A stretch of DNA of 63,105 nucleotides, counting the filler, from Reclinomonas americana ATCC 50394 (Eukaryota): the NCBI GenBank assembly GCA_048213135.1. It is 6 parts of 3 records of this genome, joined end to end, with 100 filler letters (N's around TTAATTAATTAA, not from the genome) between each part and the next. Parts side by side here need not be neighbours in the genome. Positions count along the whole stretch, not along the records: positions 1 to 17,222 come from PS015037.1; positions 17,323 to 29,602 come from PS015037.1; 4 more parts are not named here. One strand, given 5' to 3'. This document shows, in pieces, positions 5,640 through 20,600 of the stretch (positions are counted from its first letter, which is position 1; each line of letters begins with the position of its first letter). A model generated the notes under the pieces. That model did not search any database, was not told the origin of the DNA, and worked only from the letters and a program-made list of their open reading frames with translations. The position numbers and the translations under genes are program-made.

Positions 5640-7192
5640 TCACAAGCACCGGCGATGCACAATGCTCGGGCCTTCCTCCTCAAATTCAGCCATGGAGATC
5701 CACATCTTTGACAGCGACGACAGCATAGAGCCACCGATCCATGCCGAGGACTTGCGCTCCGGCGGTGCCACGATTTTGACTTCCGTGTTCGACGGAGCGC
5801 GGGCGATTATCTCCTTTTGCAGGCGCTCCGAGAAGCCTGCTCGTTGAGGAATATCAACATCGCAGCGCTCGATCGAGTCAAAAACAAGCTGGTCAATGCC
5901 CTTCTCCTCCACATTGTCGACCAGCGACGGCTGAAACATGACCTCTGCGCAGCGAAATCGCTCCGAGCCCACAGTAATAGTCTGCCTGTCAGGCAGCTCG
6001 TACGTCTTCTCGCACGCCGACGGCTCCTTCGACTTCAGGAGCTCGGCTTCAAAGTCAAGCGCCACACACGCCACCTTCTCCTTCATGTCACGCATGATTT
6101 TGCTGTCAGTGGGCGGTGAGCAGCCGCTCTCCGTCAACATCTACGAAGAGCGAAGTGTGAGCAGACGAAATGAGAGATCCAGCTGGAGGCACACACACGC
6201 AAACTCACTTTCGTGAGGTAGTCAGTCACGTCACGGCCGGCCAGCGGCAGCGTCTGAACAGCGTGTGGCAACACGAATCCCTCGTAGACAGGCACGCAAT
6301 GCGTTACACCGTCGCCCGAGTCGACAACCATACCGGTGGTGCGACCAGACGCGAACAAGGACAGCACCGCCTGGCTCTGAAGACACACGGAAGGCACATT
6401 AAAGCCAAACATGATGCTGATCACTGCAAATGTCATTGAGAAAATCAAGATAATTCGAACGCAGTGCTGCGCAACGCAACTCTTCTCGCGGTTCTGCTTC
6501 GCGTTGAGCGGGGGCTCAGTGAGCAGAACGGGGTGTTCCTCCGGATCCACACGGAGCTCCTTGTGGAAAGTGCGACTCCAGATCACGTCCAAGTAGTCCC
6601 AGTTTGTCACTGCGACCGCGCATTGAATGCAACACAAGTGCTCTCGAAAGCGCACGGAAGTGCTCACCGACTCCACGCTCAACAGGGTACTTCAGGGTCA
6701 CGCGATCATGCCGAGCAATGGCCTCATCGCCAACGAGTGGGAAAGCTTCCTCTGGGGGGATATACGCGATGCGCATACATCGGTCGCGATTCCAACTGCA
6801 TCGCAAAAAGAGCATCAGAGAGAGGCTCACTGCAGTGGCCAAGCACACTCAACTGGCCGATAACAGTCGGAAAAACGGCGCGCGGTGCATCTTCGCCGCC
6901 GAAACCAACCTTGATCGCCGTGTGTGTGTCAACACACAAGTCACTCTCGTTCATCTCTCTCACTCACTCACACACATGCAAACGTACCCTCGTCGTGTCT
7001 GCCAACGGGAACCAGCACGCAATGATCATCAGAACACAGTCAGCAATCGCATCTACATCGGCGCATTGACTCACAAGAACCACTGTCGACTGTGAACCAC
7101 ATACGCTCGTCAGATGCACCATTGCCAGCACACGTACGCAGAAACAAACTGCACACACACTCACCGACGAGAATTTTCGCATGTGCGTCCAT
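5640..7192 (-). CDS. Divergent actin-like protein 1 (internal deletion, possibly decaying)
   Basis: Spliced reading: [36 protein letters not shown]…[14 protein letters not shown]…[27 protein letters not shown]…[23 protein letters not shown]…[20 protein letters not shown]…[16 protein letters not shown]…IVHRRCL*. It lacks the RKDLYxNxxLxGG segment. Confidence 0.85.
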
Positions 7193-7340
7193 TGAAGTAT
7201 CTGGACAAGGGAGAGCGTGAGGAGGAGAGTGGGCGGTTGTCAACCATATAGTCGCACATACTTTCTGCTACTGGAAACACACGAGTCGTGTTGTGGTCGA
7301 ACGTCGACGAGGACTGTTGTCCTCCAATTTTCGTCTTTGC

Positions 7341-17278: not shown

Positions 17279-17643
17279 NNNNNNNNNNNNNNNNNNNNNN
17301 NNNNNNNNNNNNNNNNNNNNNNCGTCGTCTCTCTCGTCTCTCTCTCTCTCTCTCTCTCTCTCTCTCTCTCTCTCTCTCTCTCTCTCTCTCTCTCTCTCTC
17401 TCTCTCTCTCTCTCTCTCTCTCTCTCTCTCTCTCTCTCCTCTCTCTCTCTCTCTCTCTCTCTCTCTCTCTCTCTCTCTCTCTCTCTCTCTCTCTCTCTCT
17501 CTCTCTCCTCTCTCTCTCTCCTCTCTCTCTCTCTCTCTCTCTCTCTCTCTCTCTCTCTCTCTCTCTCTCTCTCTCTCTCTCTTTCTCTCTGTCTTCTCTC
17601 TCAATGCATCGAACCTCAGATCCGACTGCGATTTGGATGGTTC

Positions 17644-20600
17644 ATGGAAGATCTCGGGCAAGTTGTCGTCAGTGAGTGAGTCGTGTTGTTCCGGCGTGTG
17701 ACGGTGCATGTGATGAGCGTATGCGTGTGGTTCGCAGTTGACAATGGATCATGTGCGTCACTGAGCGATCTCGCTTGTGTTGTGCATGCATTGTGATTTG
17801 TTGTTGACTTGTGCTTCCCTTGCGTGTGCTGGCAGGCTTGATGAAGGTGTGTGTCTGTGTGTATGCCTCTCTATCCCTCTCTCTCCGTCTCTCTCCGTCT
17901 CTCTCTCTCTCTCTCTCTCTCTGATTGTGTACATTTGGCTTTCTGGGTGAGCAAAAGCGAATGCATGAAACACTGTACTGCACCATTGGTGCAAGTAAGC
18001 GATTCTGACATCCTCCTTCTCTCTCACACACTCACACTCTATCTCCGTCCCTCTCTCTGTCCCTCTCTCTCTCCCTCTCTGTCTCTCTCTCTCCGTCTCT
18101 CTCTCTGATTGTGTGCGTTGGGCTCTCTGGGTGAGCAGAAGCGAATGCATGAGAAACACTGCGCCATTGGTGCTTCTGACATCTTCCTTCTCTCTCTCTC
18201 TCACACTCTCTCTCCGTCTCTTCGTCTCTCTCTCCGTCTCTCTGTATCTCTCTCTCTCTCTCTCTCTCCGTCTCTTTNNNNNNNNNNNNNNNNNNNNNNN
18301 NNNNNNNNNNNNNNNNNNNNNNNNNNNNNNNNNNNNNNNNNNNNNNNNNNNNNNNNNNNNNNNNNNNNNNNNNNNNNNNNNNNNNNNNNNNNNNNNNNNN
18401 NNNNNNNNNNNNNNNNNNNNNNNNNNNNNNNNNNNNNNNNNNNNNNNNNNNNNNNNNNNNNNNNNNNNNNNNNNNNNNNNNNNNNNNNNNNNNNNNNNNN
18501 NNNNNNNNNNNNNNNNNNNNNNNNNNNNNNNNNNNNNNNNNNNNNNNNNNNNNNNNNNNNNNNNNNNNNNNNNNNNNNNNNNNNNNNNNNNNNNNNNNNN
18601 NNNNNNNNNNNNNNNNNNNNNNNNNNNNNNNNNNNNNNNNNNNNNNNNNNNNNNNNNNNNNNNNNNNNNNNNNNNNNNNNNNNNNNNNNNNNNNNNNNNN
18701 NNNNNNNNNNNNNNNNNNNNNNNNNNNNNNNNNNNNNNNNNNNNNNNNNNNNNNNNNNNNNNNNNNNNNNNNNNNNNNNNNNNNNNNNNNNNNNNNNNNN
18801 NNNNNNNNNNNNNNNNNNNNNNNNNNNNNNNNNNNNNNNNNNNNNNNNNNNNNNNNNNNNNNNNNNNNNNNNNNNNNNNNNNNNNNNNNNNNNNNNNNNN
18901 NNNNNNNNNNNNNNNNNNNNNNNNNNNNNNNNNNNNNNNNNNNNNNNNNNNNNNNNNNNNNNNNNNNNNNNNNNNNNNNNNNNNNNNNNNNNNNNNNNNN
19001 NNNNNNNNNNNNNNNNNNNNNNNNNNNNNNNNNNNNNNNNNNNNNNNNNNNNNNNNNNNNNNNGTACGTCGTCGTCGTCGTCGTCGTCGTCGTCTCTACT
19101 CTCTCTCTCGTCTCTCTCTACTCTCTCTCTCTCTCTCTCTCTCTCTCTCTCTCTCTCTCTCTCTCTCTCTCTCTCTCTCGTCTTCTTCTCTCTACTCTCT
19201 CTCTCTCTCTCTCTCTCTCTCTCTCTCTCTCTCTCTCTCTCTCTCTCCGTCTCTTTGTCTCTATCCATTTCTCTGTCTCTGTCTCTCTTTCTCTCTCTCT
19301 CCGTTTCTCTCTCTCTCTTCCTCTCTGTCTCTCTCTGTCTCTCTCTGTCTCTCTCCGTTTCTCCCTCCTCTCTGTGATGGAAAGAGATTGTCGGCGAGCT
19401 TGCAATTGACTTCTGGAAGCAGGTTGGCTTTGGCGGCGAAGATGCTCCTCGCGCCGTCTTTCCGACTCTTGTCGGTCGGTGAGTGTGCCTGGCCATTGCT
19501 GCCTTGAAGCCTCTGCTCATCCATTCGATGCGTCACAGGCAGTTGTGTTATCACCATGGAAAAAACCGTCGTCTTTTGCACCGCGCTCACCATTCTCTCG
19601 TGACTAGCACTTGCACGACAGAGGCCTTTGTTGGCGACCGGGCCATTAGCAAGCGTCAGCTTAACCTGACGCACCCTGTTGGGCGCGGCGTCGGTGTGTT
19701 GTTCATGCTCTTCCTTGGCTTCTTGCTTCTGCATTCACTCTTAACGCCCCGCCGTTGCAGTGACCAACTGGGACGACATGGAGGCAATCTGGCATCACAC
19801 TTTCTACAACGAGCTCCGTGTGACCCCGGAGGAGCACCCCGTGCTGCTCACAGAGTCTCCACTCGTCGCGAAGAGGGACCGCGAGAAGAGTTCCGTTGTT
19901 CTGTTCGTGTGCATTCATTTCCTGATCTCTCACCGTGTGGACTGCACAGTGACCAGCATCATGTTTGAGCGCTTCGATTTGCCGGCCATGTACGTGCAGA
20001 ATCAGGCCGTGCTGTCAATGTATGCAACTGGCCGCACCACTGGTGTGGTGGTTGAATCCGGTGACCGCGTAACGCATTGCGTGCCGGTCTACGAGGGCTT
20101 TGCGCTGCCGCACGCTGTGCAGATGCTGCCGCTGGCCGGCGGTGACGTGACGGACTACTTGAAAAAGGTGTGCGTGCTTTGTGTGACTTGTCATGCCGGT
20201 GTGTATTCTTACTCGTTGCACTTGTGGTTAGATTCTGAGTGGCACCGGCTACTGCAGCGACACGTCGGTTGTGCGCGACATGAAGGAGAAGGTGGCGTAC
20301 GTGGCGCTTGACTTTGTGGCCGAGCTGACGAGCTCGAACGAGTCAACGTCGGCGTGTGAGAAGGCATATGAGCTGCCCGACAAGCAGAGTATAACTGTGG
20401 GTTCGGAGCGCTTCCGCTGCGCAGAAATCATGTTTCAGCCGTCGCTAGTCGGCAATGTGGAGCAGCAGGGGATCGACCAGTTGGCGTTTGATTCGATTCA
20501 GCGCTGCGACGATGGCATGCACAAGGACTTGTTCGGCAACGTCATGTTGGCTGGTGGCAACACCATGTTCACTGGTGCGTTGGTGTGGGTGCGAGAATGG

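Follow-up and report, generated by a model that had tools for sequence, protein, structure and literature searches.

In the stretch of draft genome that we analyzed from Reclinomonas americana ATCC 50394, an intron-rich eukaryote, introns begin with donor sites of two different spacings. All counts given here refer to this 63-kb window (63,105 nucleotides (nt), parts of assembly GCA_048213135.1 joined end to end). The usual donor reads GT-(G/A/C)-N-G-T. The second form, GTT(G/C)(C/A)GT, found as GTTGCGT, GTTCCGT or GTTGAGT, carries an extra T, with its ..NGT block exactly one base further from the cut. Extra-T donors make up 10 of the 36 donors checked (8 of 24 intron positions), and the extra T is accompanied by loss of the G that usually ends the preceding exon (position -1). 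Tentatively, these sites may represent a major class, comprising roughly between one quarter and one third of introns, in which the 5' splice site is read non-canonically, either by U1 pairing in a shifted register or by a second U1-like recognizer of GTTGCGT; a one-base insertion would then move introns between classes once -1 is no longer held as G.

Extra-T donors and the base at -1

The last exon base before the extra-T donors (n = 10) is A in five cases, T in three and C in two, and before the ordinary donors (n = 26) it is G in 19, T in four, A in two and C in one. For G at -1 the comparison is 0/10 vs. 19/26 (Fisher p = 7.7e-5), or 0/8 vs. 12/17 (p = 0.0016) when each position is counted once. 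An earlier note on this DNA, which concerned the three actin-like genes described below, had coupled the extra T to a change to A at -1. The counts do not bear this out, as A is not required. Three of its five occurrences belong to homologous actin-like introns at REK/M (here and below, a slash in motifs marks the splice junction), where A is fixed by coding because it is the first base of a Met or Thr codon. "Coupled to A" is to be replaced by "freed from G." Left out of these counts as ambiguous were CysRS 12917/12912, S28 41966/41975 and 42137/42143, the first S28 intron, LplA 29000, AK6 7527, and the second protein kinase (kinase B).

Genes recognized in the window by Pfam or homology encode two protein kinases, an AAA_18/AK6-like protein, cysteinyl-tRNA synthetase (CysRS), a GT61 glycosyltransferase, lipoate-protein ligase (LplA), an S28 serine carboxypeptidase and the three actin-like proteins. 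Junctions were placed from homology and reading frame for all 36 donors. For refinement we used profile hidden Markov models (HMMs) built from homologues, scoring neighboring exons with every in-frame GT or GC donor combined with every AG acceptor, and the donor motif was excluded from the score. All 36 introns begin with GT and end with AG, among candidates restricted to GT or GC donors with AG acceptors, and their removal restores uninterrupted alignment (gapless joins in CysRS, S28 and LplA; REKM in two of the actin-like genes; AIDIW in a kinase). Both donor classes occur on short introns, with an overall median of 63 nt; other than three long ones, the checked introns measure 54–108 nt.

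Outside the actin-like genes, homology-checked extra-T donors are present in CysRS, S28 and a kinase (Table 1). The CysRS donor at 12638 is a second, independent GTTGAGT site besides the one in the first actin-like gene, and the S28 donor at 41585 is common to the five best models. In the kinase, the join at 345 comes after ..YSYA/, and the unspliced frame meets stops. In two cases a conserved residue places the cut ahead of the G rather than one base further on: the Met of REKM in two actin-like genes and, in the kinase, the Ile of A-I-D-I-W. A one-base slide of the boundaries (giving TT..GN introns) was rejected, since both residues require the GT-AG cut. Introner-like shared intron bodies were also considered and set aside, a by-eye look showing nothing alike beyond the heptamer. 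One LplA intron (29133–29191, minus strand) has the donor gag/GTTTGAAGG, with U at +3/+4 and G at +5 and -1; here the ordinary register applies (-5.0 kcal/mol), and the site does not belong to the shifted class.

The heptamer GTTGCGT occurs 29 times in the window, vs. 7.12 ± 2.78 expected, a number reached in 0 of 100 shuffles; with repeats masked, 28 occurrences stand against a Markov expectation of 7.6. Within ten annotated gene spans (20,017 nt), 15 occurrences are in the sense orientation and one is antisense (p = 5e-4). An intron-context scan blind to the donor passes 9 of the 29 sites, vs. 513 of all 6928 GT dinucleotides. A de novo intron finder that combines codon usage with the joining of open reading frames was rejected as an intron catalogue, because its yield on real strands was only about twice that of reversed-sequence controls (102/80 vs. 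64/55 at a threshold of 20), and it was kept solely for comparison of motif classes. Counts of upstream bases across all motif occurrences are dominated by a GT/GA microsatellite and are uninformative.

Actin-like paralogues and their introns

The three actin-like genes (P1, P2, and P3; Table 1) are diverged tandem paralogues with eight common intron positions. The actin HMM covers positions 10–376 across them, a full-length similarity to actin by divergent copies, and models built from the coordinates have intact reading frames in all three. Synonymous divergence (dS) is about 0.7 for every pair, with ratios of nonsynonymous to synonymous divergence (dN/dS) of 0.31 for P1-P2, 0.42 for P1-P3 and 0.34 for P2-P3.

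Intron 6, at REK/M, has the extra-T donor in all copies. Alignment of the three introns shows the first eight bases, GTT(G/C)CGTT, conserved in 3/3 copies, and diverged interiors. A conserved Met fixes the junction, as A/../TG gives REKM in P1 and P2, and a one-base slide at both ends puts Arg in place of Met. The earlier note had taken the shifted form to be maintained rather than noise, and this stands: the donor is conserved at a dS of about 0.7, the form recurs in CysRS, S28 and the kinase, and the heptamer is enriched about fourfold with a 15:1 sense bias. The P1 and P2 introns are multiples of three without an in-frame stop, and their retention would add 19–20 residues with the frame unbroken; that of P3 (72 nt) contains a stop.

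At intron 4, two donor spacings share one homologous position. The three introns have the same position and phase after FPT..G. In P1 the intron begins at 6853 in the context cggcca/GTTGAGTGTGCTTGGCCACTGC, and in P2 at 19479 in the context cggtcg/GTGAGTGTGCCTGGCCATTGC (in short form, cg/GTGAGTGTG); the donor of P3 reads tt/GTGGGT. In a MAFFT alignment, P1 has a single additional T where P2 and P3 are both gapped. The earlier note gave the letters and coordinates of the intron-4 donors of P1 and P2 and of all three intron-6 donors exactly, as confirmed by direct reading and the coordinate-built models, and its description of the P1 and P2 intron-4 donors as homologous forms one T apart agrees with the alignment. 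Its proposal that the classes interconvert by a 1-nt indel is in keeping with this single-T relation, but rests on one case. As P2 and P3 are both without the T, the change is most simply an insertion in P1, although its polarity is not firm because the three copies are about equidistant.

The P2 donor at intron 4 is forced, since GTGAGT carries an in-frame TGA; for its acceptor, 19538 and 19607 score almost alike (HMM 30.7 vs. 30.4). In P1 the extra T removes the in-frame TGA, which leaves the frame open into the intron. Some splicing of this intron must work, because the downstream exons are under purifying selection and the unspliced frame reaches a stop. Over the first ~21 intron bases, P1 (6832–6853, minus strand) and P2 (19479–19499) differ by two substitutions and one indel, about as similar as the flanking exon despite the dS of about 0.7; this could be due to local constraint or gene conversion.

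P1 is the odd copy of the three, but is not clearly dead, given that frame and constraint are kept despite loss of the LAGGNTMF block. This block, encoded by P2 and P3, is absent at about 5860–5830 (minus strand); a remnant of the 3' end of the last intron (..caacgagcag) is read as coding with the frame kept, and three residues are missing near TFQT. P1 (minus strand, start codon at 7192) and the AK6/AAA_18-like gene (plus strand, start at 7341) are arranged head to head with about 150 bp between them, which suggests a shared bidirectional promoter.

Table 1. Actin-like genes, their introns 4 and 6, and extra-T introns of other genes in the window. Exon letters are in lower case; paired values are scores of the chosen model vs. 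a rival one.
Feature	Position	Strand	Size	Phase	Donor	-1 base	Remarks
P1, actin-like gene	5640..7192	minus	8 exons, 360 codons				intact frame; without LAGGNTMF block and last intron
P2, actin-like gene	19423..20863	plus	368 codons modeled				5' exons lost in N gap and CT repeat
P3, actin-like gene	21559..23326	plus	9 exons, 375 codons
P1 intron 4	6796..6853	minus	58 nt	2	ca/GTTGAGTGTG	A	extra-T donor; intron ends GATGCAG/t
P2 intron 4	19479..19538	plus	60 nt	2	cg/GTGAGTGTGC	G
P3 intron 4	21896..21989	plus	94 nt	2	ctt/GTGGGTTTAC	T	ordinary spacing; best model 24.3 vs. 21.2
P1 intron 6 (REK/M)	6424..6480	minus	57 nt	1	a/GTTGCGTTGC	A	aga/GTTGCGT
P2 intron 6 (REK/M)	19890..19949	plus	60 nt		a/GTTCCGTTGT	A	aga/GTTCCGT
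P3 intron 6 (REK/M)	22286..22357	plus	72 nt		a/GTTGCGTTAC	A	aga/GTTGCGT; in-frame stop
CysRS intron	13047..13108	minus	62 nt		aat/GTTGCGTCAC	T	GTTGCGT; gapless MRSLN/VVPP vs. six homologues; HMM 148.7 vs. 143.2
CysRS long intron	11584..12638	minus			gac/GTTGAGTGGG	C	spans N gap; gapless join to RVLG; 136.4 vs. 128.8
S28 peptidase intron	41155..41220	plus	66 nt		ggc/GTTGCGTCCT	C	GTTGCGT; gapless LSSKQA/LYDLANF; HMM 158.8 vs. 152.3
S28 peptidase intron	41585..41646	plus	62 nt		gct/GTTGCGTGTC	T	GTTGCGT; two-intron model 135.1 vs. best one-intron model 124.5
S28 peptidase intron	42414..42474	plus	61 nt		ttt/GTTGCGTTCA	T	GTTGCGT; in 8/8 best two-intron models
Protein kinase intron	287..345	minus	59 nt	1	cca/GTTGCGTTGC	A	GTTGCGT; Pfam profile continuous from 177 to 178

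U1 pairing and alternative readings

We consider it fairly probable that extra-T donors are read by U1 one base downstream with the cut at GU, that P1 gained its T, and that the REK/M form is ancestral and selected. In such a shifted register, the intron G at +1 would face C9 of U1, the slot usually taken by the last G of the exon, and the ..NGT block at +4 to +7 would meet the U1 positions that normally face +3 to +6, with cleavage staying at GU. Loss of G at -1 would be explained because +1G occupies its slot and -1 faces U10 instead of C9. At intron 4, P1 would have gained the extra T so that, with C at -2 and A at -1, a shifted U1 sees CAG/TTGAGT, and P2 and P3 would have retained the ordinary form. 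The shifted form at REK/M would be older than the duplications and retained by selection on the donor.

Duplex energies were calculated using duplexfold with the textbook U1 5' end (as in PMC4856993), which may differ from the U1 of this organism. The P1 site at 6853 is predicted to pair in the shifted register at -8.4 kcal/mol (-2C:G11, -1A:U10, +1G:C9), as is the CysRS site at 12638 (+1G:C9), at -3.8 kcal/mol. The ordinary intron-4 site of P2 gives -12.0 kcal/mol. When the changes at the P1 site are made in silico, each one alone and the two together (the observed state) all come to about -8.3 kcal/mol, so A at -1 is not needed as compensation for the T. In this model, the -1 base would decide only between non-canonical registers, A favoring the shifted one and G the bulged one.

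Several observations weigh against U1 reading these donors one base downstream. In no register does textbook U1 pair well with GTTGCGT sites (+0.5 to -2.6 kcal/mol), and it is GTTGCGT that is enriched (29 occurrences), not GTTGAGT (5 in the window); the idea of an ordinary donor plus a T is weakened, as it does not predict enrichment specific to GTTGCGT. Among the candidates left out of the count, 12912 reads gcg/GTTGCGT, with G at -1. The same base precedes two further GTTGCGT sites on the plus strand, at 56093 and 60116 (cag/GTTGCGTG), where there is no recognized gene; should they be donors, the shifted class would include sites with this base at -1. Across all 29 GTTGCGT occurrences, -1 is T in 11, A in 7, C in 7 and G in 4, which is still far under 73% G. 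Lastly, the cut position is fixed only in the actin REK/M and kinase cases, and a one-base slide of both boundaries leaves the protein unchanged at S28 41155 and at the CysRS donors.

A modified or second U1, or a protein factor, may be behind GTTGCGT, and one alternative takes this further by supposing that GTTGCGT marks a separate donor type with its own snRNA, a second form of U1 or a U1 with an atypical 5' end that pairs with it directly. The poor pairing with textbook U1 and the specificity of the enrichment for one heptamer (29 vs. 5) both point this way. In a variant with an inserted base, however, C9 would go on pairing with a G at -1, a base that is absent here, and GTTGAGT and GTTCCGT donors exist too; we regard this alternative as quite unlikely. 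An Rfam scan of the window at the gathering threshold gave 0 matches, U1 included. It is also unlikely, if a little less so, that U1 anchors normally (+1G:C8, +2U:A7) and the extra U is bulged or accommodated in a small asymmetric loop. Registers with a bulge (+2/+3) or an asymmetric loop (+3/+4) are experimentally proven in human cells according to the available text of PMC4856993, and duplexfold picks the bulge register (-8.2 kcal/mol) if a G is put at -1 of the P1 site in silico. Such registers keep -1G:C9, though, so that G should be favored, and it is found at 0/10 extra-T donors vs. 19/26 ordinary ones. G stands at -1 in all human sites that the available text of PMC4856993 tabulates as predicted for asymmetric-loop or 2-nucleotide-bulge registers, and for the observed GTT..GT sites duplexfold never puts +1G on C8.

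Two further alternatives concern P1. At intron 4, three models are in frame: donor 6853 with acceptor 6796 (58 nt, HMM 49.1), 6830 (ca/GTGAGC) with 6752 (79 nt, 46.9), and 6848 (ga/GTGTGC) with 6752 (97 nt, 42.9). An assembly error at the T, or splicing from 6830 or 6848 to 6752, would remove the extra-T donor from this intron, and there are grounds for either in a draft assembly with 27 runs of N, an actin HMM that separates the models weakly, and a frame held open into the intron by loss of the TGA. We give these possibilities a small chance. The junction is probably 6853 with 6796, the best of the three: position, phase and acceptor all have their homologues in P2, the stretch between the two acceptors matches coding sequence in P3, 58 nt is close to the modal intron length, and the predicted U1 duplex is the strongest (-8.4 vs. 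-4.6 and -5.3 kcal/mol). CysRS moreover provides an independent, homology-checked GTTGAGT donor, and a homopolymer error need not be invoked because TT follows the G in 10 checked donors. It is improbable that P1 is a decaying copy whose extra T and -1 A are neutral lesions without functional meaning. The lost LAGGNTMF block, the coding remnant of the last intron and the three residues gone near TFQT speak for decay, but the deletions preserve the frame, 360 codons are intact over 7 introns at a dS of about 0.7, and the dN/dS values involving P1 are close to that of P2-P3.

The window and known systems

No protein of the window has a close database match, the top identity being 57% (an actin exon). 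The best matches of CysRS are from Plasmodium and Cryptosporidium (41–44% identity), and those of the actin exons are PF00022 proteins of dinoflagellates and plants (50–57%). A metagenome scan with an S28 exon returned 18 loci with only 36–69% identity over short segments and no close relatives, so that orthologous introns could not be compared. The three long introns (1.0–1.6 kb; 39363–41000 in S28, 29493–30617 in LplA, 11584–12638 in CysRS) contain CT/GA microsatellite and assembly gaps. Among the 27 N runs of the window, runs of 44 bases occur in pairs 12 bases apart at six places (e.g., 17223–17322, 45592–45691, 59037–59136) and are probably an assembly or masking artefact. GTACCGT and GTACGGT occur 13 times each vs. 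1.8 expected; a (CGTA)n tract at 3550–3601 may contribute.

Non-canonical U1 registers are already established in human cells, to judge from the available text of PMC4856993, and an extra-T donor as a major class is apparently new. We found no account of a genome with such a class in a literature search that left most journals outside, and matches to the motif strings were only primers and unrelated sequences; an earlier description may exist. For annotation, a large share of the introns here would be mis-scored by gene finders whose donor model covers six intron bases in one register; mispredicted exon ends are likeliest at sites such as P1 and CysRS 12638, which have an ordinary-looking GT a short way downstream. 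An abundant class that has cleanly lost G at -1 also allows a sequence-level test of shifted vs. bulged U1 pairing, which in human cells requires experiments with mutant U1. The P1/P2 pair shows a plausible near-neutral path between donor classes, all three derived states lying near -8.3 kcal/mol in the textbook U1 model. If non-canonical reading does serve a major class of its introns, the organism would be a natural system for studying how the spliceosome keeps the place of U1 binding apart from the place of the cut.

The Entamoeba donor, GTTTGT, is a lineage-specific U2-type consensus. Like ordinary lineage-specific U2-type introns, those of the window have GT-AG ends, are short, and do not always have a purine at +3; unlike introns with a single such consensus, they show two coexisting spacings, even at one homologous intron. 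The donor of diplonemids, (G)/GTATG in the available text of PMC12621601, does not match the donors described here.

The closest parallels come from human cells. In the shifted register (Roca and Krainer, 2009, as summarized in the available text of PMC4856993 and PMC9311317), U1 binds one base downstream and the cut is at GU. Extra-T donors resemble such sites in having GU at the cut, a consensus-like block one base off and a last exon base that need not be G, and the GTTGAGT sites have a predicted +1G:C9; unlike in those systems, GTTGCGT pairs poorly with textbook U1. With the bulge (+2/+3) and asymmetric-loop (+3/+4) registers (Roca et al., 2012; Tan et al., 2016, available text of PMC4856993) they share an extra U after GU and a block like +5G/+6U at +6/+7, but those registers keep -1G:C9 and +1G:C8, whereas none of the ten extra-T donors has G at -1. 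Validated bulge and asymmetric-loop registers account for 1.5% of 201,541 human sites in the same text, and, in contrast to these rare cases, the extra-T form here makes up 10 of 36 donors (8 of 24 positions), with GTTGCGT dominant.

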